A DNA stretch of 64,000 bases from a virus (lineage: Duplodnaviria; Caudoviricetes). The notes beneath the pieces are model-generated. The model made no database searches, had not been told where the DNA came from, and was given only the letters and a program-made list of their open reading frames with translations. The first letter of the stretch is position 1. Every line of letters starts with the position of its first letter. The stretch is taken from positions 1,297 to 65,296 of the IMG/VR virus record IMGVR_UViG_3300001598_001736; one strand, written 5' to 3'. A program made the position numbers and the translations under genes. Below, piece by piece: positions 25,692 through 47,608 of this stretch.

Positions 25692-27203
25692 TTATTTTTG
25701 CTTTCCCTTTTCGTCGTTTACTTTCTGTTGGTCATCATCGTCATAGTCATAATCATCATCAGACTTATCCGGAATAAGGTCTTTTATATTCGGCTCTTCT
25801 TCTTTTATTTTCTGAATAGCCGCCTGTGCCTGTGCTTCAGTTTCTCCGAAATACCACTGTCTCATTTCAACTTTGCCGGACATTCCCTGAGCATACAATT
25901 CAAGACGTTCTTTCAACTGTGCGGCTGTATCGGTAATAATGCTGTCATCCCATTCAAAAGATACCTCATATTCGCCTGCGGGAGCGAGGTTATATAATGT
26001 TGCGTATTTATCCATTGCACGAACAACATCACGCAAGCACTGCTCCAATGCGTCTTGGTTATCTTTTATGGTTGAATAAGACCTCTGCTTATTGATACGG
26101 AGCTCTGTGGCAGTTTTAACCTCCTGGTTTGGATCTGCCAAAGTACCACGAGCCAAGCCGACCTGGTCTTCAATTCGTATCAACAGCTGATTAAGCCCTG
26201 CAAGAATAGAAGCGTCCCTTATTGGCGGATTAAATACACGATATGTATCATCCTCTCCGAGGTCAACGCCACGGAACAATCGCTTATTGAGCTGCGGCAC
26301 TTCCATGCCGCCGGCGCCGTTCGGTTTTGGCTTGAGTGCTGTCGGGTCAACATCTACCGCCAACTCAGAGCCTTCATATTCCCAAAGCAAACGACTGTAT
26401 TGTTTGTCTGCTTGTTTTATCGTTTTGGCTGCCTTTGAGAACACACTGACACCCATAGGGCAATCTATATCAATGTTGTTTGCATTAGGCGTTTTGTACC
26501 AACCAAACATCTGACCTTCGGAATCTTTAACTATTGCTTCCGGCTGCAGTCCTTCCCACTGCGGCACTTCTGCCAAAGGTATTTCCGTGCCAAGGTTCTC
26601 TTTGGTTTCAGACTTGAAAGCTCGTTGAGTGATTTTTACATCAGTACCCTCTACCGTGTGCCGTTCAAGTCGGGTATAAATCGTTTTGCCCTTTATGAAG
26701 GTGTCTCGGAAAATACAATCTGTAAGCTCACCATCATCACCGAACGAAACAGGATATAAGCTCCACGCCATAGTCCAATCAAAAAAGATATGGCCGTCTT
26801 TGACATACGGTTTAACAGTCATACCGCCAGATGCACATCCCTGTTCAAGCTTTGTGCGAAGATTTTTTATAAGCTTTTCAAATTCATCGTGAAGATATTG
26901 AGCTCGTTCACTTTCTTCCTCTTCAACAGCTCCCTCTTTGACCGGACCAGATATATTCCATTTCATTTCAAGTAGTGTTTGACGTGCTATCTCGGAGCAG
27001 CAAAGAGAAGCAAGGTTCAGAGAAAACACCGAATCATCGTCAATCCACGGCGCCTGGTCAAGATACATTTTGTACCATAAATCAAGTGCGTTTGCCATAT
27101 CTGTTGACAGAGGACTTTCCAACTGTTCCGCTTTCTCTATGTCTTTATACGGTATCAATTTTCTCACCGCCGTTCTTATAATTTCTTTAAATCTTGAAAA
27201 CAT
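25692..27203 (-). CDS. Portal protein
   Basis: 503 aa between terminase and minor capsid; KTATEL motif, acidic tail. Confidence 0.88.
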   Translation of the reverse strand: MFSRFKEIIRTAVRKLIPYKDIEKAEQLESPLSTDMANALDLWYKMYLDQAPWIDDDSVFSLNLASLCCSEIARQTLLEMKWNISGPVKEGAVEEEESERAQYLHDEFEKLIKNLRTKLEQGCASGGMTVKPYVKDGHIFFDWTMAWSLYPVSFGDDGELTDCIFRDTFIKGKTIYTRLERHTVEGTDVKITQRAFKSETKENLGTEIPLAEVPQWEGLQPEAIVKDSEGQMFGWYKTPNANNIDIDCPMGVSVFSKAAKTIKQADKQYSRLLWEYEGSELAVDVDPTALKPKPNGAGGMEVPQLNKRLFRGVDLGEDDTYRVFNPPIRDASILAGLNQLLIRIEDQVGLARGTLADPNQEVKTATELRINKQRSYSTIKDNQDALEQCLRDVVRAMDKYATLYNLAPAGEYEVSFEWDDSIITDTAAQLKERLELYAQGMSGKVEMRQWYFGETEAQAQAAIQKIKEEEPNIKDLIPDKSDDDYDYDDDDQQKVNDEKGKQK

Positions 27204-27222
27204 TGTCGATACTCACGCTCCT

Positions 27223-27579
27223 TTATACAGCACCGGCACTTTTCCATGCTTTGTATATTTTAGCTCCTTGGTTCGCAATCCAATCGACCATTTCTTCGTT
27301 CCCAGCCCATCCTCCGTCAAAAGCAAATTCACTACCGTTCAATCCGCTTTCGCCGAGGAATGCGTGTACTATTTCGTGCTTTAATGTCTGCTTTTCGCAG
27401 GCGTCAACGGTCTCTTGGTCTTCGTGTTCCCAGCCTTTATATGTTGACATATCGCAGATAACTATTTGTTTTGTATAACTATTGCAATATCCGTCTATGT
27501 GCCTTCTCTCAAAAGCTTCGTCATCCTTGTATTCCTTTTTTGTGATTGCGTACTCGGTACCCAATATATTCACAGTCAT
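27223..27579 (-). CDS. Hypothetical protein with HExxH motif
   Basis: LKHEIVHAFLGESGL...NEEMVDWIA; start MTVNILG after AAGGAAGG. Confidence 0.7.
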   Translation of the reverse strand: MTVNILGTEYAITKKEYKDDEAFERRHIDGYCNSYTKQIVICDMSTYKGWEHEDQETVDACEKQTLKHEIVHAFLGESGLNGSEFAFDGGWAGNEEMVDWIANQGAKIYKAWKSAGAV

Positions 27580-27583
27580 TTTA

Positions 27584-28840
27584 TTACCTTCCTTTACGTT
27601 TCCATACCCTCTCAAGAGCATAACGAATACAGTCTATTGAGTGATTGTTTTCATCGGGATAGCCGCTTATAATCTCTCCATCTGAGGTACGGTCATATTC
27701 GTACTTTTGGAATTCTTCTGCTGTGGCAGGGCAGCGGATGGGGTCAATTACTATTGCCTTAAGAGATTGGAGCCACTTGATACCATATCTAACTGAATCG
27801 GGTCCTTTTTCTGCTCCTCTGCAATTTGAGCCATATTCCCTGTAATCTCCAACACTTTTAGGCTCTGCACTATCAGCTGTTATAAGGTCGGATCCGGTCA
27901 CGCCTTTTTCTGCTTGAAGTATTTCCCATGTCTCTCTGTTACTCTTTTTGTTGGCTCTTAATTCATCATAAACATAAAGAGTAAGCCGAGCTGCGTCATA
28001 ATGCATTTTGCACCAATGAAACGGGTCTGGGTACCAACCCCAGTCAATTCCCATATAGATGTTATCAAACCGCATTATTTCTTTATCTGAAATCGCACGA
28101 ATATCCAGGTTTTCAAATACTTCTCCGCCGGTACCGACAGCATTTCCGAGGTATTCATGCTCATAGGCTCTTGGGTTTATTTCTTTGAGATATTCCGCAT
28201 CGTTAAGGAATTGCTCCCCGAGCCATTCTTTCGGGACTTGATTATAACAAGACTTATGTCTCAATGAATCGTCTCTCGGCTTGAGAACATATTGGTTTGC
28301 CCAGTTCGTTTTGCTTATAGGCGGGTTAAAGGATTTGAACACAACAAATTTTGTGCCGCCACGCATAACAGACTGTTGAACACTTCGGATTTCTTCCTCA
28401 CCGGAGAATTCATCCAATTCCTCAAACCAAAGATATTTGAAATATCCGTGAGCTACTTTAACTGATTTAAGTTTTTTCGCCTTATCGAGTCCACGGAAAA
28501 TAATAACCTGCCCGGTAGGCAGGTATGTAAGTTTATATGGGCTTGTTGTTGGCTTCCAAAGTTTATCGGCACCGAGTGCGTTTATGCCCCATTGAACCTG
28601 TTCAAAAACACTGGTACCTATCGTTGAACCAACCTTTCGGAATACCATAGCATTAGCATTCGGGTCTTGCATTATTCCGAGAGGTATTTCAGTTCCGATG
28701 AAAGATGACTTTGTGCTGCCACGACCGCCGTATAAATCATAATAGGTGTGCTTTTCATCAACAATATCCCAATGAACAGGGTAAAACTGCGGTGCAATAA
28801 TACTTGAAAGGCGAACACCATTATCAGCGTTAATCATCAT
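27584..28840 (-). CDS. terL: Terminase large subunit (PBSX family)
   Basis: GGRGSTKS Walker A, WFEELDE Walker B, GIDWG and NHSIDCIRYA nuclease motifs. Confidence 0.95.
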   Translation of the reverse strand: MMINADNGVRLSSIIAPQFYPVHWDIVDEKHTYYDLYGGRGSTKSSFIGTEIPLGIMQDPNANAMVFRKVGSTIGTSVFEQVQWGINALGADKLWKPTTSPYKLTYLPTGQVIIFRGLDKAKKLKSVKVAHGYFKYLWFEELDEFSGEEEIRSVQQSVMRGGTKFVVFKSFNPPISKTNWANQYVLKPRDDSLRHKSCYNQVPKEWLGEQFLNDAEYLKEINPRAYEHEYLGNAVGTGGEVFENLDIRAISDKEIMRFDNIYMGIDWGWYPDPFHWCKMHYDAARLTLYVYDELRANKKSNRETWEILQAEKGVTGSDLITADSAEPKSVGDYREYGSNCRGAEKGPDSVRYGIKWLQSLKAIVIDPIRCPATAEEFQKYEYDRTSDGEIISGYPDENNHSIDCIRYALERVWKRKGR

Positions 28841-29339
28841 TTGGATTCGTCTCTCCTTGTGCTTCTCTTGGTATATCGCAGATTATAACAACAGAAGAGT
28901 TTGCCGATTCGTCTTGTTTTTCGTTTTCTTCAATAACCATTTCTCGGCTTTGGCGTTCAAGTTCTGTTGCCATTTCAACAAATTCACGAATGCTTTTTGC
29001 GTCCAGCCTTCTCGGGTCAAAATCTTTAAGAGCTTCCAAAGCCTTAGCTTGAAATGTTGTAGCAATTTTTGCGTGCCTTTCATACATTTCTTTTCGACTT
29101 TTTTCGGCTTGCTTTTTTGCTTGTTTTTCAAGGTCGTTGTCGTATTCTCTTACTCTTTCGGACCAGTTCCACATATCAGCCCATCTACGAATAAGAGTGT
29201 AACTTTTATGCAACTCTTCTGAAACAGAGATTAGGGTGCGTTCGAGACCTTTATCTCGGTACTTGACAAATGCCTGAAATGCCTGTTCGCTTTCTTTTTC
29301 CTGGCGTTCCCAAGCATTGATTTTATTGTTATTTGTCAT
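28830..29339 (-). CDS. terS: Terminase small subunit
   Basis: WERQEKESEQAFQAFVKYRD...WNWSERVREYD HTH-like N-terminus; overlaps terL start. Confidence 0.75.
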   Translation of the reverse strand: MTNNNKINAWERQEKESEQAFQAFVKYRDKGLERTLISVSEELHKSYTLIRRWADMWNWSERVREYDNDLEKQAKKQAEKSRKEMYERHAKIATTFQAKALEALKDFDPRRLDAKSIREFVEMATELERQSREMVIEENEKQDESANSSVVIICDIPREAQGETNPNDD

Positions 29340-29402
29340 TCCCTCCTCTCCTTTTCTTTCAAATTTTTTCGAGAATTGCAAGGCAGGGAATAGTCAAGAA
29401 TT

Positions 29403-29726
29403 TCAACCTTTGGATTTACCGTATTTGTCAACATGGAAAGTGTCTTCCCAACCTCGGTATTTATCTCTCTCGACTACATCAGGAGTACATCGCTTGTTGC
29501 ATCGCTTTTTATCCCTTTTACAAATACACACGGTCTTTCCGTCTTTATAGTCGATGAATACCTTTATGTATTCAACTCCGGGTTTCTTATTCAAGCTATC
29601 CCTCCTTGCGTTTGGTGTGAGTTTATTATCTTTTTCAGACGGAATGCAAACCAACCATTGCAACGCACGGAATAACCCCATAAAGCGAATTATGCTGAGA
29701 TACCGAGTTATCACATTCTCAAACAT
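29403..29726 (-). CDS. Hypothetical Cys-containing protein (start uncertain)
   Basis: Only co-directional ORF between the ParB cassette and terS. Confidence 0.45.
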   Translation of the reverse strand: MFENVITRYLSIIRFMGLFRALQWLVCIPSEKDNKLTPNARRDSLNKKPGVEYIKVFIDYKDGKTVCICKRDKKRCNKRCTPDVVERDKYRGWEDTFHVDKYGKSKG

Positions 29727-29813
29727 AACAAAGCGCTCTGCGGGGCTATAATTGTTTCATATGGTCAAATTGTTTTCTTAAACATTCCCACTCTGTTAAT
29801 GCAAATATACAGT

Positions 29814-30335
29814 TTAGACTTTCGTAAGAATTTCTGCACGGCTATAAACTTTACCCTGTGCCATAAGATTGATGAAATCATCTTTTGAAAAGTCTGAAAG
29901 TCTAAACACTTCTTCCGGCTTCATTCCGAGTTGTTTTCCAATCTCTTTTACCGTCTTTCCTTCATCAAGAAGTTTCTTGACTATTGCTTTCATCGGTTCC
30001 AGCAAATGTGTTCCTCTTGCTCTGTTATGGGTGATTGTTCCATACATATCTTCGCTCTCGTTGTCGTGTGCCACGATAACAACAGGTACTTTCCCGCCGA
30101 GTTTTGATATCAGAGGTTCACGCCCGGAAACTGTCCAACGGTGGAAGCCGTCAATTATTGTATAGTCAGGACGGACAACAATAGGAAGTGTCCATCCGTT
30201 TGTAAGAATAGATTGAACAAGGAGCTGCATATTCTCTTCGCTAACCTTATTGGGGTTATAATCGTTTGCGTGCAGCATTGTTCTGTCAACCCATTGAAGC
30301 GATTCAAGAGGGGAGAACAGATTCATCTCTGCCAT
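29814..30335 (-). CDS. IbrB/YbdM-like ParB/Srx-domain protein
   Basis: ANDYNPN...GWTLPIVV...IIDGFHR...TITHNRARGTH. Confidence 0.85.
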   Translation of the reverse strand: MAEMNLFSPLESLQWVDRTMLHANDYNPNKVSEENMQLLVQSILTNGWTLPIVVRPDYTIIDGFHRWTVSGREPLISKLGGKVPVVIVAHDNESEDMYGTITHNRARGTHLLEPMKAIVKKLLDEGKTVKEIGKQLGMKPEEVFRLSDFSKDDFINLMAQGKVYSRAEILTKV

Positions 30336-31489
30336 TATTGATCACCCCCTTCCAATCTGAATCGTTTTGCGTACTGTGCATACGCTCCGTAAACATCTTG
30401 GTAGATGGCTCGCAATGTTCTGAGTTTGGGATCTCCTGCAATAAGTGCATCGTGCATCTTTCGGTAATCCCTTGGTCTTGCCATTCCGTCAACTTTGGTA
30501 TAGAGGCGTTTATATTGCTTGCAAACATTCTGTGTTGTCTTATTTGTAAACAGTTTGTCCGCATCAACAAAAAGCATTTGTTTTACAAGTGCTTTATAAT
30601 CCTTGTCGGATGTACTTTCTTGTTTGGCCCTTTTTCTTGTAGAACGCTTATACCATTCGGAATCCCAATACAGTAGAACCATATATGCATTGGGTTCTCG
30701 CTTTTCAATCCGAGCCCATAAATCCGGGTCTGTCTCCGCAACATGCCTGAGACCGGCAAGCGAATCTATTCCGAAAAAGTTTGATATTCTTAATGCGTGT
30801 TTATTTACGCCCTCTTGATACAACCATAAATATGCTTCAGGCACATCAAGTTTATTGTCTCTGATATACATCCACACATCGTTGTCTTTCCAGTCATATA
30901 TCGGGTATATGGTATTCGTACCCGTAATGCCTTGAACGCCAATGTTTAATGCAGACATATATTGCAGCCGCTGAACCGATTCAGCGGCTCTCACGCCTGT
31001 CATCATAATTCCGTTCTTTGTAACCTTAGGAAGAAACGTCTGATAATTCATTTCTCCGATTTTGGTTAAATACGGACTGCTCATAATTGCAAATGCCGGC
31101 GGCTTGCGTACCCAAATATCTTCCTTGCCCGGTTCCCAGGTTACCCAGCTTTCCTCGTTTGTGAGAGAATTAAGGCAACACACCTGTTTGAACGGCAAGC
31201 AGTACCATCTGAATTCCGCTCCAACAAGCATAAATTTCTTTCGCCAATATTTCATTGATTCGATTGAGCAATCATATATTGCCTCTTCATCAATGAATAT
31301 GCAAATAAGCTGTTTTGGATTTATCTCGCCTCGCTGAATGAGCTGATATGTAATATCGGCCATACAGATTGAGTCTTTGCCGCCGGATAAGCTCATATAC
31401 ACCGTAAGCCCGTTGGAGAATACATTTCGTATTCTTTGATATGCAGCTTCGACACAGCTGATAGAACCTTGCGCTCTCTTTACAGCCAT
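30335..31489 (-). CDS. IbrA/YbdN-like PAPS-reductase-family (PP-loop) protein
   Basis: SLSGGKDS PP-loop, GVRAAESVQR, YPIYDWKDNDVW. Confidence 0.85.
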   Translation of the reverse strand: MAVKRAQGSISCVEAAYQRIRNVFSNGLTVYMSLSGGKDSICMADITYQLIQRGEINPKQLICIFIDEEAIYDCSIESMKYWRKKFMLVGAEFRWYCLPFKQVCCLNSLTNEESWVTWEPGKEDIWVRKPPAFAIMSSPYLTKIGEMNYQTFLPKVTKNGIMMTGVRAAESVQRLQYMSALNIGVQGITGTNTIYPIYDWKDNDVWMYIRDNKLDVPEAYLWLYQEGVNKHALRISNFFGIDSLAGLRHVAETDPDLWARIEKREPNAYMVLLYWDSEWYKRSTRKRAKQESTSDKDYKALVKQMLFVDADKLFTNKTTQNVCKQYKRLYTKVDGMARPRDYRKMHDALIAGDPKLRTLRAIYQDVYGAYAQYAKRFRLEGGDQ

Positions 31490-32079
31490 ATCTTCTCACC
31501 ACATTTCGGGCAAACAACAAATTTGCCGGAAGAAGGTGCTTCCGGCTCTGCGTTGTATTGTGTATTGACAGGCTGCTCATACTGTACCGTCACTGTAGGC
31601 GGCTTGATGTTTTCACTCTGCTTTTCGATTGTCTCTTTCAGCTCATCATCGACAAGACCATATGATGACATTATATCGTCAACATCATCAGCGTCTGCAA
31701 TGAGCGTTTGTAGAAGGTCTTCGTCATAACCGGGAACATCAAGGTCATCACCGAGTTCAGCAATAATTTCATCAAACGCTTTCATGTCATCAACGCCGAG
31801 ATCGAATATTCGATTATCTGCCAACATAAGCTTTTTCTTTTCCTTATCTGACAGCCCGGCAGCAACATAACAGTCCGCATCTGACCTTCCCATTGAAACG
31901 AGCGTTTCATAAAGACCGTTGCCGGCAAGGATGAAGTTATCTTCGTCAACAACTATCGGTCTTATCTGACCGAACATTTCAACAGAACGGCGGAATTCGG
32001 CAATCTGCTTATCTGTGTGCATTCGCACATTCTTTTCGGGGTGTTTCAGCTCCGACAGTGCCTTTTTTACTACTTTCAT
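31480..32079 (-). CDS. ParB/Srx-domain protein with C-terminal CPKCG
   Basis: HPEKNVRMH...FGQIRPIVVDE...ILAGNG...MLADNR. Confidence 0.85.
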   Translation of the reverse strand: MKVVKKALSELKHPEKNVRMHTDKQIAEFRRSVEMFGQIRPIVVDEDNFILAGNGLYETLVSMGRSDADCYVAAGLSDKEKKKLMLADNRIFDLGVDDMKAFDEIIAELGDDLDVPGYDEDLLQTLIADADDVDDIMSSYGLVDDELKETIEKQSENIKPPTVTVQYEQPVNTQYNAEPEAPSSGKFVVCPKCGEKIWL

Positions 32080-32083
32080 TTTT

Positions 32084-32863
32084 TCACCCCCTCTCTTTGA
32101 GGAAGTGACTGGCACTTTCTATCTTTTCGGCTGCCTTCTGAACGATTGACGGATCTATGTCGTAAACTTCGCTCCATCCGTTCTCAACACTGCCGGTATA
32201 CATACGGGACGGCCACGGGTGTGTTCCACATCGGAAGCCATTCTTCCAACCATATATCGGCGGCAGCTCAATGTTGTTATAGTAAATAAATGCAAGAATC
32301 ATTTCGTGGGACCAATCTGCAAGAGGCGAATAACGGATTTCGCCGGAACCTTTTCTCAAAGTTCCGTCTGGTCCGACAATATTTCCATCTGCTTTTCGGT
32401 GACCTACGATAATGAAATCAAGATTATTGTCAAAAAAGTATTTTGTGAATGCGGCTCTCTGCACAATCTGATACCAACGGTTAAGCTTTTTGCCTTTCGG
32501 AAATATCATATCTTCGTGCTTTGCAAGCCAGTCAAGGTCAAGCGGAATATGAATTGTTTCACACTCGTTCGGCTTGTTTTTCATACACCAATCAAGGAAT
32601 TCAGGATATTCAAGGTCGGTATAAGCAAACATTGACTTGTTTATTCCGGCTAACTCACAAATTTTGCTAAGGACAATACTGTCCTTACCACCGCTCCACG
32701 CATAAGCTACATTCTTTCCATCTGTTGCCGATTTGAGCGTTTTTACGGTCGTTGCAACAGCGTTATCGAGCTCTTCTTTGGTAATAAGTTCATCTATGTG
32801 CTTGAATACTTCAATCCATCTCTCGTTGTCTGAGGTCTGTTTGCGGCCAAGTGTTCTTTTCAT
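32084..32863 (-). CDS. Second PAPS-reductase-family (PP-loop) protein
   Basis: AWSGGKDS, GHRKADGN, SPLADWS; start overlaps transporter stop (ATGA). Confidence 0.82.
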   Translation of the reverse strand: MKRTLGRKQTSDNERWIEVFKHIDELITKEELDNAVATTVKTLKSATDGKNVAYAWSGGKDSIVLSKICELAGINKSMFAYTDLEYPEFLDWCMKNKPNECETIHIPLDLDWLAKHEDMIFPKGKKLNRWYQIVQRAAFTKYFFDNNLDFIIVGHRKADGNIVGPDGTLRKGSGEIRYSPLADWSHEMILAFIYYNNIELPPIYGWKNGFRCGTHPWPSRMYTGSVENGWSEVYDIDPSIVQKAAEKIESASHFLKERG

Positions 32864-33855
32864 ACCTTCGCCGCCTTTCTTTTGGAAATACAGTTCCAAG
32901 TCAAAGCGACGGCAATGGCACCAATGACGATGTATATTCTGATACTTGCCATAAGCGTCCATGCGCCCATAACACCGAGAGGTATTAAGAATTGCCACAA
33001 TGTAGCTGTAATAGCGTTAATAGCAAGCCCAAGCTTTTTACCAAATGTAATATAAATGCTATACAGGAACGAGGAAAGAGAAGAAACTGCAATGAGTGTA
33101 ACAAGTATTGCCTTTATCACATTCAAAACTGGATTAAACACGGCAAGGCTCATAAGGAATATGAACACAAGATAGAATCCGAAAATAAGGCCACCATTGA
33201 CAAATGCTTTCCTGATGTTGATTTTGTTTGTTCCGTCTTCATTGTTATCGTTGTAATCCAACAGTTCATAATAGTACGGATATAGAAACGCTCCCGGTAT
33301 AAGCAGTATGCAATTTTTAATTCCCACTCCTACGCTGTCAACTCCGGAAACAAGAGAAACATATTCGCCGTTTGAAGTTGAAAGTGCAACGATTGTGAGG
33401 GCAAACACAATAGCATATACGGCAGTCCAACTCATATGGTCTGTAAGCACATTTCTTATCATTCCATACTTAAAAAGAATGATGATAAAGAACACCGCAA
33501 AGGCAAGGGCGATAAAGATACCGATATTTTTTCCAAGTATAGTGTCTGCGAAAACCTGCTGTATTCCGTTCATTGAAATCCAGCATTGGAAAGGACACAT
33601 AATGCCCATAATTATTTTCATCGGCTTGCTTTTGAATACTTCCCGTAATTTGGGAATTTTAGGAGCTAATAGCCCAAAGACAATACAAGCTAATGTATTG
33701 CCGAGTGCCCAAAGCAAAAATGGGATTATTCCATTATTTTGCGATGTTGTTATTCCGTTGAGCAAACTTCCTGCATTTGCCCAGGTTGCCGCTATACTCA
33801 TCGAATAATAGAACGATGGATTTGATTTATAGCGGGTTTTCAATTTTGAAAACAT
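32860..33855 (-). CDS. Multi-pass membrane protein, sodium:solute-symporter-like (331 aa)
   Basis: SMSIAATWANAGSLL resembles an SSS N-terminal helix; about ten hydrophobic segments; start after AAAGGAGG. Confidence 0.65.
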   Translation of the reverse strand: MFSKLKTRYKSNPSFYYSMSIAATWANAGSLLNGITTSQNNGIIPFLLWALGNTLACIVFGLLAPKIPKLREVFKSKPMKIIMGIMCPFQCWISMNGIQQVFADTILGKNIGIFIALAFAVFFIIILFKYGMIRNVLTDHMSWTAVYAIVFALTIVALSTSNGEYVSLVSGVDSVGVGIKNCILLIPGAFLYPYYYELLDYNDNNEDGTNKINIRKAFVNGGLIFGFYLVFIFLMSLAVFNPVLNVIKAILVTLIAVSSLSSFLYSIYITFGKKLGLAINAITATLWQFLIPLGVMGAWTLMASIRIYIVIGAIAVALTWNCISKRKAAKV

Positions 33856-33974
33856 ACTGTTTTCCTCCTTTAATATTCGGTATATCTGTTGGCGTACAGA
33901 TATCCAAGTCGCCGCTACGCAAGGAGCAACATAACGACCGTATTTCTCTTTTCTATCCTCCTTCGCATAAAAAT

Positions 33975-33999
33975 ACCGACAGGCTTTTGTCCTGTCGGT
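33975..33999 (-). terminator. Terminator-like hairpin in late leader
   Basis: accgacagg / cctgtcggt 9-bp stem followed by ATTTTT on the minus strand. Confidence 0.55.
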
Positions 34000-34024
34000 T
34001 GCTACGATAGAATTCAATAATATC

Positions 34025-34058
34025 ATAATAGCACATAGTAAGCGGACAAAACGGACAA
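34025..34058 (-). promoter_or_regulatory. Putative activator-dependent late promoter
   Basis: Extended -10 TG-C-TATTAT (34033-34025) with two TTGTCCG direct repeats (34043-49, 34052-58) in place of a -35, right after the activator stop. Confidence 0.6.
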
Positions 34059-34060
34059 GA

Positions 34061-34465
34061 TTAGTTTTGCTCGGTTTTTTTCAGATACCTGTTGCACGCC
34101 TTGCGTACACTGTCTTCTGTGTTATTACCGCCGATATGTAACGCAATCTGCTGCCATGTCATTAAATCTACAAATCTATATGACATAATCAGACGAATCT
34201 GATAATCTTCGACTGACTGAATGTATTCTTCAATAACAATTCGTTCCCTTATGTACTGTTCTTGCTGCTTCTGAATACGCTCTTTCACTTCTATAATAAG
34301 AGGGACTATTGTCTCCATTTTATTTTTTGGTGAAGGATTTCTCGGCATTCCGCTTAAATTCATCCCGCTCGGTTGTAACTGAGCTTCAAGTTCTGACAGC
34401 TTTATGGTATCTCGTTCTATCAGTTTATGTAGATAATACAATTTACTTAATTCCCTAACCGTCAT
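34061..34465 (-). CDS. ArpU/RinA-like late transcriptional activator
   Basis: IEEYIQSVEDYQIRLIMSYRFVDLMTWQQIALHIG sigma-region-4-like HTH; last gene of the early region. Confidence 0.75.
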   Translation of the reverse strand: MTVRELSKLYYLHKLIERDTIKLSELEAQLQPSGMNLSGMPRNPSPKNKMETIVPLIIEVKERIQKQQEQYIRERIVIEEYIQSVEDYQIRLIMSYRFVDLMTWQQIALHIGGNNTEDSVRKACNRYLKKTEQN

Positions 34466-34494
34466 ATCTTCGACCTCGCTTTCCTCTTGCAGAG

Positions 34495-35038
34495 TTATTT
34501 TTCGATTGATTTGTTTTCTGCTTCAATATAATTTTTCCCAATTTCAATACTGGCAAGAAGACGACATCTTTTACAAATTTCGCACGGTTCATCGTCATCT
34601 TCTCCTTTCTGATATCCAAGACATTTGTTTATATTGAAGAGTCGTTCAGGCTCGCCTTCTCCTTTTTTTACCATCTTTTTGATAAGTGAACAGTTTTCAA
34701 GTGTTTTTGTCATATTCGTTCTCCTGTTGAATTGTTCTCAAGGATTCCCATTCATCATACCAATCGTGTTCATGATTGCGGCAGTCCTCTCTGTTGTCAT
34801 ATAAATAGCCTTTACGAAAGCCATACGCTTCACCACAAAAGTGATAATCTCCTTGTACAATTCCACGACCGTTCCTCACAAGATATATTTCTTTTTCATT
34901 ATTGTAGCCGATATCAGTTATTGAAACCCTTTGCACCCGGTCTCTATTGTCTAAAACATAGTATTCCCAGTCATCGAGGCTCGGATCTCTCGGGTTTGGA
35001 AGATAACTCTCAATCATTCGTTTTTCTTGTTCAGTCAT
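34495..35038 (-). CDS. Two small hypothetical phage proteins (34495-34713, 34697-35038)
   Basis: Tightly packed co-directional ORFs. Confidence 0.55.
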
Positions 35039-39799: not shown

Positions 39800-40498
39800 T
39801 TAGGTACACCTTTCAATCACTTTTTTCATTTCTTTCTGCAAGGAATCTTTGATATAGTAATTAACACCAAGCTCTTTGCAGAGACTTTCGGCTTTTGCTC
39901 CGAATGCAGCCCAATCAATATTTGACGGATAATAATTAAGCTTTCCGATTTTTACTATATCAGCGATTCCTGCGACACAATGAAAGCCCACAAAGAACGC
40001 TCTTTCATTTGTTACCGGCTCAAATGATACCCAGGTGCTGATACCTTTTATGTGTGCCTCTGCTAAACCATTTAATCGCTTTGGAAGAAAATCGCTTTTA
40101 ATTCCGTCAAGTGTGATACCATACCAATCGTTTCCATCAAGCAGGTCAAAATCTCTGCTGCCGTCACCTTTGGTAAGTATCTGAACATTGTTCCCGCTCT
40201 TTTTGATAATTTTGATTATCTCTCGTGTCGGTGTACTGTCATATCCGGCAGGGTAAGGGTCACAGGTAAAACAAAGATGAATGAGTTTCCCTGTTATCTG
40301 TTCTCGCTCGATTTGTTTTCTGACTTCTTCCACAATGTTTTTTCGTGGCTCAACTTTTGAATGAAATTCTTCTTTGTCTTTGCGTAACACTTTGGGAGCA
40401 AAGCAGTAAAAACATCTATGTGGGCAGCCCGTATAAATGTTTATGGCTAAATCTCCATATTCTTTGGCAGCACCTTTTGGCTCATATATCGGTTTCAT
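39800..40498 (-). CDS. Radical SAM protein
   Basis: YTGCPHRCFYC (CxxxCxxC), FTCDPY, TWVSFEP. Confidence 0.85.
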   Translation of the reverse strand: MKPIYEPKGAAKEYGDLAINIYTGCPHRCFYCFAPKVLRKDKEEFHSKVEPRKNIVEEVRKQIEREQITGKLIHLCFTCDPYPAGYDSTPTREIIKIIKKSGNNVQILTKGDGSRDFDLLDGNDWYGITLDGIKSDFLPKRLNGLAEAHIKGISTWVSFEPVTNERAFFVGFHCVAGIADIVKIGKLNYYPSNIDWAAFGAKAESLCKELGVNYYIKDSLQKEMKKVIERCT

Positions 40499-41097
40499 CT
40501 GGTTCTCCTATCCATTTCCAGTTATCGCATATCCACGGCTCGGCTCCTTCTTTGAAACAGCATTTGTTTCCATTTTTGCAATATTTACCACAAATTGCGG
40601 ACAACTTATCATCTGTTTCTGCGTCAAGCATAGGTTCAGCGGTAAGACGTATTTTTTCAACGGTCTGTATTATTTCTTTTATTTGTTCTTTGGCATCGTA
40701 AGCATTTTGAGATGAATTATTCATGTCATCGCCATCCTTTAATTATTTCATAGGATTTGTTTAACTGCTCAATATCAAAATATCCGAAATGGCATTCTGA
40801 AACTGGTATATTCATTTCTTTGGCAAGTTTCTTATAACATTTACGCCTCTGCTTTTTTGTGCTCCAGAATGTGTCAAAAAGTGCGTGACACTTCTTTTTC
40901 ATTTCTCGCATTTCGTTATTTGCAAGTAGCCCAAATGCTTCTTTTGGTCTCGGTCTGTGTGTTCCAACATAAGCACCGCACTTTCGGCAACGGTAGCAGA
41001 AACCGCTGCCGAATGGGCGCCCATATATTTTATCGTTTCTTATGTATTCGACTTCTCCACCGCATATATTGCATTTGGCGGGATGTAATTCCATCAC
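40482..41097 (-). CDS. Hypothetical protein (40482-40724) and Zn-finger protein (40726-41097, DUF3268-like)
   Basis: CNICGG...CRKCGAYVGTH...CHFGYFD. Confidence 0.65.
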
Positions 41098-41107
41098 CGT
41101 TCTCCTT

Positions 41108-41866
41108 TCAGAAGTTTGTCCATATTTTTTCTGTTCTTTGCAATCCCATTTGTGCAGTGGTATTTATTGAATCAGTATTCCAAGCTTTCAAATATTCGTT
41201 ATACATCTCGTTATCATATCCACTGATTACTATCTTTGATTTACTTTTAACAATTACTCGCAACAGCTCTTCGTGCTTGAAATCATCCATTTCGTATTTG
41301 TACATATTCCGCTTTCTCATGCTTCTAAGATACGGCGGGTCGCAGTATATCAATGTTCTTTCATCGTTATACCGGGAAATTAACGTTACTGCATCTGTAT
41401 TCTCAATTTGTGCGTTCTTTAATCTTTCACAACACGACACTATTTTCTCAGGTAAATCATTCCACATCGTTGCGCATCGTGGTCCACCATATGTTTGAAC
41501 ATTTCTCCAACTGTTTTTACTGCTATTGCACGTTCCGAAAGATTGATGATACCGTACAAGCGTTCTCCTTGCCTGTTCAACAGGGTCATATACCGTATCT
41601 TTGCAGTTTTGAAATTCTTCTCGTGCAAACGGCGTAAGCTCTATTACTCTTGCAAGTTCTTTTGGGTGCTCACGGCACACCCGAAACAGATTCACAACCT
41701 CTCCGTTAATATCGTTTATCGTTTCTATGTAAGACGGTTGTTTATTGAAAAACACACCGCCAGAGCCAAAGAACGGTTCAAGATATACTTTGTGTTCGGG
41801 AAAGTGAGATATAATCCAGTCTGATATTCTCCACTTCGCACCTGGATATTTGAGTATTGCTTTCAT
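41108..41866 (-). CDS. DNA adenine methyltransferase (Dam/D12 class)
   Basis: LKYPGAKW, YLEPFFGSG, IYCDPPY. Confidence 0.92.
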   Translation of the reverse strand: MKAILKYPGAKWRISDWIISHFPEHKVYLEPFFGSGGVFFNKQPSYIETINDINGEVVNLFRVCREHPKELARVIELTPFAREEFQNCKDTVYDPVEQARRTLVRYHQSFGTCNSSKNSWRNVQTYGGPRCATMWNDLPEKIVSCCERLKNAQIENTDAVTLISRYNDERTLIYCDPPYLRSMRKRNMYKYEMDDFKHEELLRVIVKSKSKIVISGYDNEMYNEYLKAWNTDSINTTAQMGLQRTEKIWTNF

Positions 41867-42288: not shown

Positions 42289-42289
42289 A

Positions 42290-44101
42290 TCACATTGCCT
42301 CCCTTATCCTGAGTTCGCAATACTCCGGAAGATTAGCCCTGACTAATGCTGCAGGGACTTGCGGGGTAACGGCGTTTCCGCATTTGCGAGTCTGTTCACT
42401 TTTGGGATAATTTCGTTCGCCGATTTTCAGGTCAATAATGTAATCGCCCGGGAAGCCTTGACAATTGAATAATTCTCTCGGTTGAAGCATACGCATCTTA
42501 ATATCGGTGATTATGTATTCTTCCCCGTGGATAGTAACAACTGCGAATCTGTCTTTTGCGGTGATTGTATCAATAGGTTTGTTTGCATCTTTCGGTCCGC
42601 CTGTTCTGTTGTATTTCATCAGAAACGCTTGAACCTCTGCGTGATGTGCTCCACTGCAAGCGATTGTTGATAATGGCTCTGCCGGAGATTGCCCATATTG
42701 ATTATTTCTCAGCATAAGGATGTGAGCTGTAACCAGGCTGTTATGGTCTTTCGCAGTTATTGTCCCAATCGGGTCATCAACGGAGCTCCCATGGCCTTTA
42801 TATCCACCGCCGTAATTCTTCATTATGCTGGCAACAGATAACGCATACCTATTTGACGTGTCCTGTGTCATCAACGGCTCGTCTATCTCTTGCCCTCGCA
42901 CTTCACTGTTTCCTGTTTCGGAATGATACTGAATCAATGTTGGAGCAACAAGGATATGTTCATTTTTGCTTACCACGGTTGAGAGCGGGTCGTTCGCCGA
43001 GCGTGTTCTATCCCCACCGGACTGTTGACCTATTGCCGTAATAGTAGGCGAAACAAGAAAGTTTCTATTCCCTGTTGTAATGGTCGGTAACGGCGAATCT
43101 ACTCTCGCTCCGTTGTTGTTCGTGTTGTTACACATAATTGTTGGTGTAACTATTCCATAGCCGTGCTTTGCAGTAACTGTTTGAAGAGGCTTATTTATAC
43201 TTTGTCCTCTGAAAGTGTCTCCACCGTGATTTACGGTAACGATAAATGGTTCAGGATTATCAATAACGAATTTCTGTATTCCTCGTGCTATCCTTTTCAG
43301 AGTATTTTCTGCAAGAGGTTTTTTTCGCTCGAATATGCTTGTTGCCTCAATACTCCAATCAATGCATTCTGCTGCGGTATGGTACGGTAACAGCTGTCCA
43401 TTTCTTACAGCTTTGCTGTTTTGCGGTCCATGTGTCGCTTTCGGCCACACTATTTTCTTGCCGTCACGCCGTGCTATCATATAAAACCGAGTTCTTGATG
43501 TTGGAGCTCCATAATCACACGATTTAAGCACTTTGTATTCAAGCGTATAGCCAAGTCCTTTTTGACAAGCTAAAGCAATATCTGAATCATCCGACACTTT
43601 CAGACTCTCACACATTTCTGCAAAGGCGGGATGATTTTTCGGAATACCTGTTGTCAATGCAAGAGCGAATCCCTCAAAGGTTTCACCGCTTCTTTCTTTG
43701 ATTGGCTTGTTATCTTCTCCGAGCGGTCCCCAAGTCTGTATTTCGGGAACATTTTCCATCATTATCACTCTCGGTCTGACCGCAAAAGCCCATTTGACCG
43801 ATACCCACGCCAATCCACGAATGTTTTTATCAACGGGTTTTCCACCCTTTGCACGGCTAAAGTGAGTGCAGTCGGGTGAGAACCAGGCTAACGCCACAGG
43901 ATAGCCGTAACACGCCTCTACCGGGTCAACAGACCACACATCTTCACAATAGTGCTTTGTGAATGGATGATTCGCCTTGTGCATTTCAATAGCATTTTTG
44001 TCATGGTTGATTGCAATATCAACGCTTCGACCTATGGCCATTTCAATTCCGGTAGAAGCTCCGCCACCACCGGCAAAGTTATCAACAAACAGTTCTCTCA
44101 T
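42290..44101 (-). CDS. C5-cytosine DNA methyltransferase with repetitive variable region
   Basis: DNFAGGGGAS, FSPDCTHFS, MMENVPE, RTRFY, RMLQPRELFNCQGF, GNAV. Confidence 0.92.
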   Translation of the reverse strand: MRELFVDNFAGGGGASTGIEMAIGRSVDIAINHDKNAIEMHKANHPFTKHYCEDVWSVDPVEACYGYPVALAWFSPDCTHFSRAKGGKPVDKNIRGLAWVSVKWAFAVRPRVIMMENVPEIQTWGPLGEDNKPIKERSGETFEGFALALTTGIPKNHPAFAEMCESLKVSDDSDIALACQKGLGYTLEYKVLKSCDYGAPTSRTRFYMIARRDGKKIVWPKATHGPQNSKAVRNGQLLPYHTAAECIDWSIEATSIFERKKPLAENTLKRIARGIQKFVIDNPEPFIVTVNHGGDTFRGQSINKPLQTVTAKHGYGIVTPTIMCNNTNNNGARVDSPLPTITTGNRNFLVSPTITAIGQQSGGDRTRSANDPLSTVVSKNEHILVAPTLIQYHSETGNSEVRGQEIDEPLMTQDTSNRYALSVASIMKNYGGGYKGHGSSVDDPIGTITAKDHNSLVTAHILMLRNNQYGQSPAEPLSTIACSGAHHAEVQAFLMKYNRTGGPKDANKPIDTITAKDRFAVVTIHGEEYIITDIKMRMLQPRELFNCQGFPGDYIIDLKIGERNYPKSEQTRKCGNAVTPQVPAALVRANLPEYCELRIREAM

Positions 44102-45912
44102 TCTGTTGCCTCCAACAATAGCAACTGATTACTTGTAATCGGTGATAAATAATAGTCAGTTCTTTGCAATACTTCGTTATATGCCTCCTCACCTTGGAAA
44201 CTATCAATAACGGTTTTCTCTTCCTCGGTTAAATCTGCATACTTTTTCTTTCCGTAACAAGGTGGGAGCCATTTCTTGCTTTGTGCCACATAAATGTTGA
44301 AACGCTCCATCAGTTCAGGACAAGTGAATTCAATGTGTATCGTTCCTTTTTTGTAAAATGTAGCATTAAAGAATTTGAACGGGACTTTTTTCGTGATTCC
44401 TTGATTAAAATATCTTTCAAGCGTTCTTTCTACATCTTCAATTTCGGCGCTCATTCTACCATCGAAAAAGTTCAAGATTTTCTCTATATCTCGAATAACA
44501 CCGCGAGCGTTATATGTGCGTGGTCTGCCATCCCAACTATCGAACACACCGTAACAGGGGATAATGGCTTTTTTATCTATCTTGTGGGCTTTGTTTGTCT
44601 TCCAACCGTCATAATAATGGCGATTTTTTTGTGTTTCCGGGTACCAGGAGTGTTCTTCTGTAAGACGGTCAAACATTACCATTATTGCATCTTCAATGCC
44701 GACTTTGATTTGTGCGTTCATTTCTGCTGATAGTGTCATAATGTTGAATTCGGTAAAGTCATAATTTTTCAACTGTTCAACTTTTTCTTGGTATTCGCTT
44801 TGTAGTTTGGCGGTAAGCCGCCCGATAAATTTCTGATTAGAAAGCAACGCTCTCCAATATTTCAACCTAACATCTTGAAGAAAATCATTGACGGAAACAC
44901 AATCCGCATAGCTGCGGTCATAATGGTTTACAAGCCTTAAAATCGGTCTTTTATAATCCTTATCAAAAGAATTTTGCAAATACGGAGCCAACGCTTTGTA
45001 TTGCCGTATCAGTTCAAGACCTGATTTTACTTCACAATTAAAGTGACTTATTGCTGCTTTGATATAGTCGTAAACTTCAAGCTCTGTCGCTTCTTTGTAA
45101 AAATCTTCTACCTGTTCAGCTTTTTTCATTCGGTTGAAAATATCGCTTTCTTCTTGAACAGCTTCTATGCTTACTTTTATTAAAGCTACTTCTACATCGG
45201 TTTTTCGCTCCGCTGACATAAACCCGTGCTCAATGAATTCGATAATTGCGTTGTACTCATCGAGTTTTTTTAATAGTTGTCTGCGTGTATCTGTGTATGG
45301 GTTTTTCAGCGTTTCGGCATTGAGTAAACAAATAATGTTTCCGCCTTTTTCTTGAATCTTTAAGGCTTTTAACAAGTGCCTATCACCATTGGAAAATGGT
45401 GGATTCATTACAATAAGGTCGTAAGTCTTAAAAGGTGTATAGTTAAGAAAATCATCGTGTACGATATGTATTCCGTTTTGAAAAAAGCATTTTTCTTCTT
45501 TGTCAATGGCTTCAAGTATTTCAAGGTCATCATCAGGAACGGAAACATACTTTCCTTCGGCATCGTTGTAATACTGCCAACCGCTCTTAAAACGATGTTC
45601 GCAATATTTATATTTCCCGGTGATTTCTTTTCTTTGTTGACATAGTGCTCTTTTGCGTTCTTCCGAAAAATTGTACTTGAGAATTTGCCGCAAATTTGCA
45701 TCTATTTCAATACAGTCAACATCAAAGCCCTTTGAATGGTAATCATCTTCATATTGGGTTAATATTCTCAATATGTCACCTTTGCCGGCAGATGGTTCCA
45801 AAATGCTGTGAATTTCACCCCATTTAATTCCTGACAGCATTTTCTCGGCGATTTCGGGCGGTGTCGGGTAAAACCCGACATCGTCCTTTGTGTATTCAAC
45901 AATCTCATTCAT
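44098..45912 (-). CDS. SAM-dependent (amino) DNA methyltransferase with DUF4942-like domain
   Basis: FYPTP, ILEPSAGKG, VMNPPF; C-terminal FYKKGTIHIEF. Confidence 0.8.
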   Translation of the reverse strand: MNEIVEYTKDDVGFYPTPPEIAEKMLSGIKWGEIHSILEPSAGKGDILRILTQYEDDYHSKGFDVDCIEIDANLRQILKYNFSEERKRALCQQRKEITGKYKYCEHRFKSGWQYYNDAEGKYVSVPDDDLEILEAIDKEEKCFFQNGIHIVHDDFLNYTPFKTYDLIVMNPPFSNGDRHLLKALKIQEKGGNIICLLNAETLKNPYTDTRRQLLKKLDEYNAIIEFIEHGFMSAERKTDVEVALIKVSIEAVQEESDIFNRMKKAEQVEDFYKEATELEVYDYIKAAISHFNCEVKSGLELIRQYKALAPYLQNSFDKDYKRPILRLVNHYDRSYADCVSVNDFLQDVRLKYWRALLSNQKFIGRLTAKLQSEYQEKVEQLKNYDFTEFNIMTLSAEMNAQIKVGIEDAIMVMFDRLTEEHSWYPETQKNRHYYDGWKTNKAHKIDKKAIIPCYGVFDSWDGRPRTYNARGVIRDIEKILNFFDGRMSAEIEDVERTLERYFNQGITKKVPFKFFNATFYKKGTIHIEFTCPELMERFNIYVAQSKKWLPPCYGKKKYADLTEEEKTVIDSFQGEEAYNEVLQRTDYYLSPITSNQLLLLEATE

Positions 45913-47608
45913 AGTCGCTCGCCTCATACTTTTCTTCCAATGCAGCCGCAATGTCTTCTTTTGTCATTTCGTCTACATATTCATCTGTGTCATCGGGCGA
46001 TTCTTCTCTTATAAACAGTTCATTTGTCCCGTCCAAAAGAGACTTTTCTTCATCAGACGGTTCATAACCCATTTTTGAAAGAAATTCATATATAAGGTTT
46101 AATTTGTGATTTTCTTCAAATTGCTCGTTATAATCAAAGGTTACATTGTTCTCGTTATCAAAGAATCTTGCATAGACATGTAATAACAACAATTTATATG
46201 GATTAGCTTTTACTTTTTCGGATATTGCCGAATAACCTTTGTCTGCTTCACTTGCCTTTTGTTCAAAAACATTTTTATTGTAACGCTGGCTATAATAGTA
46301 ACCGTTGTTTAATGCAGAAGAATCCCAATCGTTTCTTATGTCAAATTCAATGAGAGCTTCAATTTTTCCTTTTGCTTCGGCATTACTCATTCCAAGTACA
46401 AAATCCTTGCGCAGTTCATAGGCTCTCTCTGCGGCATCTTCAAGTTTTTTTCTGATAATCCGTCTTTCTTCTCTTTTTTTGTTTTCCTCAATTTCTTTCT
46501 GCGTTTCTTCTGCTTTTTTTGTCTTGCGGAAGTATACGGTGTTATAATTGAACGAAAAATATTCTTCATCTCCAGTCAGCACATAATCTTTGGCACCGAC
46601 TGTTCCAAGCTGAACATAGTACTTTTCACAAAGGCTGTAATTTCCGCTCCACGCTTCTGAATAGGCAATTTCTTTGAGGCCGTGTTCAAGAAGCTCGGCT
46701 CTCCATTCGACCTCATACTTTTTCCTTGCCTGTTCATCAAGTGCGTTTTTGACAGCTCTTTCAAAATTTGCTGTTCCGGCTTCCTTAAGAACCTCATTTC
46801 TTTTATCAATGTCATCAATCTGCGACAACTTATCAAATTCAAGCAAAGAGATTTGTCTCGCAGATACATTTTTCAGAGTTTCTGTATCGAGCTCCGCCAT
46901 TTTCAATCTACGGCGTACAGTAGTTTTTGAAAATCCTGTTTTTTCAGAAATGTCATCAAAACTATCTCCGAAATCGAACATCATTTGGAATCCCTGAGCC
47001 TGTTCATAGACCGTTAAATCAGAGCGTTGCATATTCTCCAGTAACATTGTCTGAACCTGTTCTGCTGCTGTCATTTCGGTAATTACACAGGGGAGAGTTC
47101 TTAATCCGGCCATCCTTGCCGCTTCTGTTCGCCTGTGTCCGATAATCACCGTATAATCATCAGGACTTACGCCGCTGTTAATATACATTCTGAGTTTTTC
47201 GTTCGGGCTTTTTTCGTATTTATCATTCAGAGCTTTTCGTTCATCTGCACTGAAACGGTGCCCACGTACTACGGTAAGATTCTGCAAAATCCCTTTTGCT
47301 CTTATACTATCGGCAAGCTCGGTTAAATCGCCGAGGTTCTTTCTCGGATTGTCAGGATGAGGGTGCAGGCGGTCAATATCAATCCATACAATTCCGCCTG
47401 TTTCTGATTCGCTGATTTCTTCTTCATAAAGAGCCTTTTCGAACTCTTCTTCAAGTACCTTTCTGCGTTTTTCCTGGTCCGGTATTGTGTTGTCACCTAT
47501 GCCGTTGTTGGCATAGTAAATACAGTCGAGTTCGTGAAATTCATATTCACACTTTTTGCCGCATTCGTTTTGAAGCGGACATCTTTTATTCTTTGTATTG
47601 TTAGCCAT
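45905..47608 (-). CDS. ParB/Spo0J-family protein with N-terminal Cys cluster
   Basis: LHPHPDNPRK...GILQNLTV...IIGHRR...LLENMQRSDL. Confidence 0.85.
   Translation of the reverse strand: MANNTKNKRCPLQNECGKKCEYEFHELDCIYYANNGIGDNTIPDQEKRRKVLEEEFEKALYEEEISESETGGIVWIDIDRLHPHPDNPRKNLGDLTELADSIRAKGILQNLTVVRGHRFSADERKALNDKYEKSPNEKLRMYINSGVSPDDYTVIIGHRRTEAARMAGLRTLPCVITEMTAAEQVQTMLLENMQRSDLTVYEQAQGFQMMFDFGDSFDDISEKTGFSKTTVRRRLKMAELDTETLKNVSARQISLLEFDKLSQIDDIDKRNEVLKEAGTANFERAVKNALDEQARKKYEVEWRAELLEHGLKEIAYSEAWSGNYSLCEKYYVQLGTVGAKDYVLTGDEEYFSFNYNTVYFRKTKKAEETQKEIEENKKREERRIIRKKLEDAAERAYELRKDFVLGMSNAEAKGKIEALIEFDIRNDWDSSALNNGYYYSQRYNKNVFEQKASEADKGYSAISEKVKANPYKLLLLHVYARFFDNENNVTFDYNEQFEENHKLNLIYEFLSKMGYEPSDEEKSLLDGTNELFIREESPDDTDEYVDEMTKEDIAAALEEKYEASDYE

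Follow-up and report, generated by a model that had tools for sequence, protein, structure and literature searches.

A 64 kb window (the whole stretch of DNA analysed here) of the 65,296-bp IMG/VR virus record IMGVR_UViG_3300001598_001736 carries nearly all of its genes on the minus strand. The record is rated complete by CheckV and is a phage of gut Clostridia. At the head of its late operon lies a cassette of five genes, g1 to g5, in which a membrane transporter is joined to two PP-loop proteins and two ParB-like proteins. The cassette and the genes that bound it are listed below, with protein lengths in amino acids (aa); one of them is an uncharacterised open reading frame (ORF).

33855..32860, minus strand: g1, 331 aa, a polytopic membrane protein resembling a shortened secondary transporter of the solute:sodium symporter (SSS) type, with a LeuT fold
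32863..32084, minus strand: g2, 259 aa, a PP-loop protein (WSGGKDS) of the PAPS-reductase family, an optional member of the cassette
32079..31480, minus strand: g3, 199 aa, a ParB-like protein
31489..30335, minus strand: g4, 384 aa, an IbrA-like PP-loop ATP pyrophosphatase with a helical C-terminal domain
30335..29814, minus strand: g5, 173 aa, an IbrB-like ParB/Srx protein
34061..34465, minus strand: upstream regulator gene, given for context only, 134 aa, RinA/ArpU-type (phrog_36, 3.6e-14)
29403..29726, minus strand: Cys- and Lys-rich ORF of 107 aa between g5 and terS, whose membership of the cassette is uncertain
28830..29381, minus strand: terS (small terminase subunit), the downstream boundary (phrog_6299, 6.9e-27)

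The five genes are co-oriented and translationally coupled (a 4-bp overlap between g1 and g2, a 4-bp gap between g2 and g3, a 10-bp overlap between g3 and g4 and a 1-bp overlap between g4 and g5). They stand directly behind the leader of the late operon, and 3' of g5 the order is the 107-aa ORF, terS, terL and portal. A sequence-only reading of the same DNA had named the five genes and described them as an operon at the head of the late genes; the ORFs, junction lengths and family matches are as it claimed, and the cassette lies between a RinA/ArpU-type regulator 5' and terS 3'. A homologue of the regulator occupies the equivalent position in the cultured Faecalibacterium phage FP_Taranis (MG711467), where it is annotated as a RinA-like activator. 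The GC content of the cassette is that of the remaining phage, and a search of the phage collection for near-identical DNA found none; among public sequencing runs, none of RNA is listed as carrying this DNA. The 107-aa ORF matches no Pfam or PHROG family and has homologues 3' of g5 in L004, L016, L020, L133, L187 and L197, the one in L187 being 90% identical across residues 39-107.

How widespread is this arrangement? Loci were fetched from IMG/VR with g1, g3 and g4 as queries, and 106 g3-containing loci were tallied; the counts that follow refer to 91 loci with at least 1.5 kb of upstream sequence and are somewhat inflated because several come from one contig. The content and order of g3-g4-g5 are invariant in all 91, and a transporter lies directly 5' of this module in 89, of the short g1 type in 49 and a true PF00474 SSF protein in 40; only two loci have no transporter. 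By contrast, g2 is found in 53 of the 89 transporter-bearing loci (18 of 49 with the short type, 35 of 40 with the long type). Co-occurrence of all five genes, for which the sequence-only reading had proposed a survey, stands for the transporter and g3-g4-g5 and falls for g2. Its doubled PP-loop and ParB pairs are not what is conserved, with g2 missing from about 40% of loci, FP_Taranis included: the conserved unit is the transporter with g3, g4 and g5. Chance is far from explaining an arrangement that dozens of IMG/VR and prophage loci repeat in the same order, with proteins 45-87% identical.

FP_Taranis carries the four-gene form, without g2, between its RinA-like gene and terS, annotated in order as a 'transporter membrane protein', a 'nuclease' (the g3-like gene), IbrA and IbrB, and the cultured Faecalibacterium phage Pioen has the four-gene form too. 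A prokaryote scan with one genome per species placed the cassette in prophages within metagenome-assembled genomes (MAGs) of Oscillospiraceae and other Clostridia, and also in two Treponema MAGs. The system had been called undescribed; its four-gene form is in fact deposited and annotated in FP_Taranis, while the literature searched gives it no function. Newly seen here are the interchangeable transporters, the optional g2, the exchange of the cassette for DpdA-like and YhhQ-type genes, a supported g4-g5 complex and the bacterial capture of g1. When window positions 27112-34503 are compared with L187:5264-12990, protein identity is 76-91% for the regulator, terS, terL and portal, 48-56% for g1-g4 and 78% for g5, a pattern that would fit a cassette that either evolves faster than its flanks or was exchanged. 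A sharp mosaic boundary between the two was considered and rejected: DNA identity is 65-77% throughout, with no sharp step.

Further evidence that bears on function comes from what else occupies this position. By pattern scan, the leader motif is present in at least 61 IMG/VR loci with varied first genes; the leader is a general late-operon head, and a transporter-specific riboswitch was rejected since the leader precedes quite different first genes in 61 loci. Besides g1 and the long SSF transporters, these first genes include cargo that has no transporter of the SSS type:

3 loci (L119:5079-7650, L145, L162): a phrog_620 ParB, a DpdA-like transglycosylase (phrog_887, 5.4e-22) and a YhhQ-type importer (Vut_1; PF02592, 3e-42), then terS
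9 loci (L111:4640-5281 and eight near-identical): a YhhQ-type importer (Vut_1) alone, then terS
3 loci (including L127:4919-6834): a ParB, an ABC-like ATPase (phrog_11143) and a formyltransferase
about 7 loci: divergent IbrA/IbrB with another ParB and no transporter

The divergent IbrA proteins are 22-28% identical to g4 and the divergent IbrB proteins 34-38% to g5, and in L137 a Dam methyltransferase lies between the two. Going by these family assignments, the slot from leader to terS is a predicted hot-spot for modules of the DNA-modification type. DpdB, a ParB-like ATPase, is required in vitro for the insertion of preQ0 into DNA by DpdA (PMC10164549), and YhhQ is encoded by phages (PMC6884629). 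That a known combination of importer, ParB-like protein and enzyme of DNA modification swaps in at the position of the cassette is the strongest, if indirect, argument that the cassette, too, may act on DNA through a reaction fed by its transporter. By analogy, the swap behind a common leader lends indirect support to the idea that the phage imports a small substrate, activates it and modifies DNA.

The leader region itself contains the following elements:

34022..34049, minus strand: promoter-like site TTGTCC-16-TATGAT, from a consensus scan (9 of 12 matches)
33975..33999, minus strand: terminator-like hairpin (9 pairs, 6 of them G-C) with a T-run, between the promoter-like site and g1
33856..33972, minus strand: 117-nt late-operon leader with an AAGGAGG box, two hairpins and the Shine-Dalgarno site of g1

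Promoter-like sites show no enrichment over shuffles; related loci have a near-consensus TTGACT/TTGACA-17-TATGAT at the equivalent place, and their leaders keep both the hairpin and the T-run. In the leader, hairpin 1 (about 33936..33913) has a TTGCTCC loop (CUCC in the RNA) and hairpin 2 an ACGCCA loop, and RNAfold gives a z score of -3.98. The leader aligns across 33 loci and is conserved between loci whose g1 proteins share only 45-77% identity. Hairpin 1 covaries: 90.3% of cells are paired compared with 76.0% in shuffles, and 37 cells hold double changes compared with 13, a level matched by 0 of 500 shuffles, with slid controls far lower. The leader matches no Rfam family. The layout of 33856-34049 is like that of a promoter-proximal terminator read through by antitermination, and is also seen in L002-L067 and L110-L168.

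Turning to the proteins, g1 matched nothing in Pfam, PHROG, NCBIfam or the other family libraries scanned, and its homologues, at least 982 of them, are viral for the most part. Its AlphaFold (AF2) model, with a mean predicted local distance difference test (pLDDT) score of 84.9, has a LeuT fold, and Foldseek places first the SSS member CHT1 (SLC5A7), at a query-normalised template-modelling score of 0.62-0.65 (E 1e-4), followed by Nramp and APC transporters. An Atlas lead from g1 to SSF has a score of 0.92. Against the PF00474 transporter at the equivalent position in related phages, g1 is 23% identical over 237 aa, with a SIAATW motif in common. Its 331 aa correspond to roughly the 10-helix core only, compared with 13-14 helices and about 450-550 aa in a full SSS protein, and its invariant blocks are S258-S259-L260-S261-S262 and Y17..S30. 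The description of g1 as an SSS-like membrane protein is therefore borne out by fold (LeuT, CHT1) but not by family profile or full architecture. The long transporters of other loci (460-510 aa) match PF00474 at 1e-18 to 1e-25 and stay below the cut-offs of TIGR00813 and the other NCBIfam models, the nearest sub-threshold model being PanF. That two non-equivalent forms of transporter are found on one enzyme core argues that transport itself is what selection acts on.

A homologue of g1 with 68-70% identity also occurs without the enzymes in four Clostridia MAGs, within a chromosomal operon of a divergent archaeal-type prolyl-tRNA synthetase (ProRS)-like gene, a 318-aa gene, the g1 homologue and a leucyl-tRNA synthetase (LeuRS) gene:

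L174:661-6510, L175:3619-9412, L176 and L177:385-6170: operon with the g1 homologue in the MAG loci

The four MAG copies form one clade of the tree, nested within the phage clade that contains the g1 of the window; it appears that a bacterium acquired the transporter from a phage in a single event of capture. The operon suggests, weakly, that the imported compound may be an ordinary nutrient, perhaps an amino acid. No T-box control of the proS-like/g1/leuS operon was found at the gathering threshold, and no family was found for the 318-aa gene.

The SGGKDS PP-loop motif is intact and invariant in both g2 and g4. The smaller protein, g2, matches PF01507 (3.6e-11) and phrog_424 (3.4e-23), has TtuA as a weak nearest solved relative (1.1e-3) and contains the cysteines C69 and, partly conserved, C212. 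In g4, which matches PF01507 (4.7e-08) and, across residues 1-369 of 384, phrog_2302 (1.4e-83), the PP-loop residues are S35-G-G37-K38-D39, and the protein shares 29.9% of its residues with the IbrA annotated in Escherichia phage PhiR5_2. Its AF2 model (pLDDT 82.8) combines a generic PP-loop fold with a helical C-terminal domain; the fold neighbours are NcsA, TtuA, CysH, FAD synthase, GMP synthetase and LarE, and a search for a close solved relative found none. That C-terminal domain is of the right size for PF11922 (DUF3440), to which g4 gives no match at E <= 0.01; the divergent IbrA of L137 scores 23.6 bits against DUF3440, whose cut-off is 25. C97 is the one cysteine of g4 that stays invariant among 33 diverse homologues.

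For assimilatory sulfate reduction, the CysH and CysD models give 17-28 bits, where their cut-offs are 154-413. No sulfate-assimilation genes had been noticed in the sequence-only reading, and profile searches agree: neither APS kinase nor cysteine desulfurase (PF00266) was found in the 65-kb record by searches that were positive in control genomes, in 14 of 14 for the desulfurase. No cysteine desulfurase lies beside the cassette in the surveyed loci.

The two ParB-like proteins differ in family. g3 belongs to phrog_620 (1.3e-45), with no Pfam match, and is similar to the ParB domain found N-terminally in ParB-methyltransferase fusions (phrog_498, 1e-27; PADLOC MTase_II, 1.4e-14); where the DGxHR/GxxR motif would stand it reads GNGL, and it has CPKCG at its C-terminus. 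The phrog_620 ParB that adjoins the DpdA-like gene in L119 is 27% identical to it (E 1e-14). g5 belongs to phrog_2159 (1.1e-70), matches PF02195 (1.5e-06) and is the most conserved gene of the cassette, with 63-87% identity between loci; it has an invariant motif D62-G63-x-H65-R66, which reads DGFHR, and no invariant cysteine.

Modelling also supports binding between g4 and g5, one of the pairs for which the sequence-only reading had proposed a complex prediction. The model of the two together, built on custom alignments, reaches an ipSAE interface score of 0.77, compared with 0.01 for the best control; 58 of 80 solved complexes but 2 of 110 mismatched pairs attain this level. The model runs agree on at least 51% of contacts, with a partner pLDDT of 64, and in the modelled contact the C-terminal tail of g5 (residues 145-173) packs against the PP-loop domain of g4, at residues 2-15 and 168-230. 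Memory of a known complex is an unlikely source of this result because no solved relative exists.

What would such a cassette do among packaging genes? The answer that we favour, tentatively and just short of an even call, is an import-fed, DNA-directed adenylating enzyme module that is expressed together with the packaging genes. Late in infection, g1 would let the cell gain more of an ordinary small metabolite, which might be an amino acid or an amine. The g4/g5 enzyme would spend ATP to adenylate a substrate oxygen, either on DNA or on the imported compound (to our knowledge, adenylation of a substrate oxygen is the mechanism of every characterised PP-loop enzyme), and the imported metabolite would then be coupled to DNA. 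The ParB-like proteins would direct the chemistry to DNA, much as DpdB does for DpdA; g2 might supply an optional second activating step or be a specificity variant. The product would be a post-replicative mark on the phage DNA, made just before packaging, that probably guards against host nucleases. A link to DNA is indicated by the family of g3, since ParB domains of phrog_620 occur fused to DNA methyltransferases (phrog_498), and the timing by the place of the cassette as the first genes of an operon running into terS, terL and portal. A more specific chemistry, of a type so far undescribed, in which g4-g5, with g3 aiding, would adenylate a backbone phosphate or base oxygen of double-stranded DNA shortly before packaging and attach to it an imported amino acid or amine whose supply the SSS importer controls, seems to us rather unlikely.

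Several observations weigh against our proposal. For IbrA/IbrB proteins, the literature searched reports neither base modification nor binding to DNA nor enzymatic activity; the likeness to DpdA is one of common position and common ParB family, at 27% identity only; and the amino-acid hint about the imported substrate comes from one capture event. Because GNGL lacks the arginine of the nucleoside triphosphate (NTP)-binding motif, g3 may not be an NTPase like DpdB. g5 gives a faint match to the serine kinase SerK (0.0099), which, like sulfiredoxin, is a case of a ParB/Srx fold that works on proteins or small molecules. With three DNA methyltransferases of its own, the phage has no obvious need of a further mark, and decayed prophage cassettes with internal deletions indicate that the cassette can be lost.

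Could the cassette instead serve small-molecule or RNA metabolism? An imported precursor would then be turned by the PP-loop enzymes and ParB/Srx phosphotransferases into a cofactor, a nucleotide derivative or a modified tRNA base, with the purpose of aiding late gene expression or blunting a metabolite-based host defence. The nearest solved relatives of g2 and g4 (TtuA, NcsA, CysH, FAD synthase, GMP synthetase and LarE) act in this realm, the ParB/Srx fold includes sulfiredoxin and the SerK that g5 faintly resembles, and the lone g1 homologue in the ProRS-like/LeuRS operon implies that the imported compound can be useful without the enzymes. We nevertheless think this improbable: the ParB family of g3 is fused to DNA methyltransferases and adjoins a DpdA-like gene, the cassette is always beside packaging genes, in a slot otherwise used for DNA-modifying enzymes, and no second metabolic enzyme stands alongside to complete a pathway. 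A protein could also be the target, as the sequence-only reading had allowed, for instance through adenylation-dependent ligation of the imported compound to capsid, portal or terminase; the late-operon position would suit this, and sulfiredoxin is a case of a ParB/Srx fold acting on a protein, but no fusion or neighbourhood ties the cassette to a protein substrate, the existing ties being to DNA enzymes, and the chance of it is very small.

Another view is of an accessory to regulation or packaging: IbrA/IbrB and the extra ParB protein would bind phage DNA near the packaging site or, in keeping with the name of E. coli IbrAB, co-activate late or prophage genes, with the transporter as a passenger that benefits host nutrition. 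The sole phenotype attached to the family's name is 'co-activator of prophage gene expression' (as annotated in FP_Taranis), the genes have the late regulator and terS as neighbours, site-specific DNA binding is the classical role of ParB proteins, and cassette proteins 48-56% identical between flanks at 76-91% diverge as specificity factors might. We consider it doubtful, however, and give it little weight: the invariant PP-loop and many invariant polar residues of g4 would suit catalysis rather than mere binding, a transporter present in 89 of 91 loci and in two forms does not look like a passenger, and the many phages that have this leader and terminase type without the cassette show it to be dispensable for packaging. 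Finally, the sequence-only reading had drawn an analogy to DNA phosphorothioation of the Dnd/Ssp kind, which would cast g4 or g2 as DndC/SspD and g5 or g3 as DndB, the persulfide carriers of the host being the source of sulfur. DndC, SspD and BrxP do share the Pfam family of g2 and g4, DndB is a ParB-like DGQHR protein where g5 has DGFHR, and there are weak partial matches to DndC (3e-06; the PADLOC DndC matches are limited to residues 159-213) and to BrxP (2.2e-10, 37 bits, partial, profile positions 117-303 of 779). But these scores are far under cut-off (TIGR03183, the DndC model, gives 17.9 bits against 290.4), one invariant cysteine in g4 and none in g5 leave no 4Fe-4S site, and the record has neither the desulfurase nor the APS kinase. 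No DndD/E or SspB/C lies beside the cassette in the loci surveyed with the query set used, where DndD/E were not profile-searched, and no SSS transporter is known to import sulfur anions. The analogy breaks down, and phosphorothioation is most improbable.

Elsewhere in the window, an early region (39800-47608, minus strand) holds the methyltransferases, a third ParB protein and a radical SAM protein:

44101..42290, minus strand: C5 cytosine methyltransferase
45951..44098, minus strand: DUF4942/MTS methyltransferase
47608..45905, minus strand: third ParB protein, ParB_N with HTH_ParB
41866..41108, minus strand: D12-class adenine methyltransferase
40498..39800, minus strand: radical SAM protein, 232 aa, weakly PA0069/Rv2578c-like

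In the decayed cassettes, residues 1 to 99-112 of g1 are joined straight to the middle of g4 or of g5:

L194:6001-7706: decayed cassette
L196:6001-6632 (Anaerotruncus colihominis JM4-15): decayed cassette
L197:6001-6447: decayed cassette

Apparent fusions of cassette proteins were set aside. In P0123 (567 aa) and P0126 (700 aa, in the P0123 cluster), SSF and PAPS_reduct parts are separated by an Arg-rich out-of-frame stretch, and we take both to be frameshift artefacts or pseudogenes. P0121, a predicted protein of 769 aa from one ENA contig, combines NAD-dependent DNA ligase domains with an IbrA-like PAPS_reduct part that is 58% identical to g4 over 76% of g4; this LigA-IbrA fusion is not used as evidence, coming as it does from a single contig and possibly from an assembly artefact.

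Of the 'auxiliary metabolic genes' reported in gut viromes, those resembling PAPS reductase are among the most frequent, and they are routinely taken as sulfur metabolism. In the large group of phages of Clostridia surveyed here, they form part of a fixed module that has a dedicated importer and ParB-like proteins and no sulfur partners. If DNA is marked, a new chemistry would be added to phage anti-restriction, and the import-fed module that we favour would, if true, give a first function to IbrA/IbrB (YbdN/YbdM), a family that lacks an explanation even in E. coli K-12. The literature searched contains no functional study of IbrA/IbrB, DUF3440, YbdN/YbdM, a PAPS reductase with ParB, or the cassette, and that on Faecalibacterium phages has no discussion of the FP_Taranis cassette genes; as cultured carriers, FP_Taranis and Pioen make direct testing possible.

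Among known systems, the closest by family are IbrA and IbrB of E. coli (the ibrAB island of ECOR-9, with the K-12 paralogues YbdN and YbdM), which fall in the same PHROGs as g4 and g5 (phrog_2302 and phrog_2159). The E. coli pair stands alone, without the transporter, second ParB and second PP-loop gene that the g1-g5 cassette has; its sole reported effect is regulatory, and the ybdNM literature is likewise on regulation, with no biochemistry. In logic, the nearest parallel is the 7-deazaguanine Dpd system (DpdA/DpdB, or phage dpdA with YhhQ), where an importer and a ParB-like partner also accompany a DNA-modifying enzyme. The two also differ: the catalytic partner in the cassette is a PP-loop enzyme, which implies activation and ligation where DpdA exchanges a base, g3, with its GNGL, lacks the DGxxR arginine of DpdB (g5 reads DGFHR), and the cassette transporter is of the SSS type, whereas the phage importer associated with Dpd is YhhQ. 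None of the cassette proteins matches the DpdA-like family phrog_887, and the record gave no match to it either, a weak negative given that the control of that search was silent; no Que-pathway genes were found among the ORFs scanned. A queuosine pathway was considered and rejected: the radical SAM protein is not QueE (it is weakly of the PA0069/Rv2578c type), and the small ORFs next to it have no QueD match.

The Dnd and Ssp systems and the BrxP protein of type 4 BREX also pair a PF01507 enzyme with a ParB-superfamily protein, and the DGxHR motif of g5 is alike; the cassette differs in lacking iron-sulfur cysteines and in having a transporter instead, and no PglZ, BrxC or SspA/B/C partners were found among the ORFs scanned. 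With TilS and with TtuA/NcsA the cassette enzymes share the SGGxDS PP-loop and the nearest solved folds, at marginal sequence similarity (E 1e-3 to 0.35). Those proteins act on tRNA, have RNA-binding domains of their own and have no ParB partner, and TtuA/NcsA require a 4Fe-4S cluster, which g2 and g4 lack. TilS, the lysidine synthetase, attaches an amino acid to an adenylated base, which is the type of reaction that we propose for the cassette.

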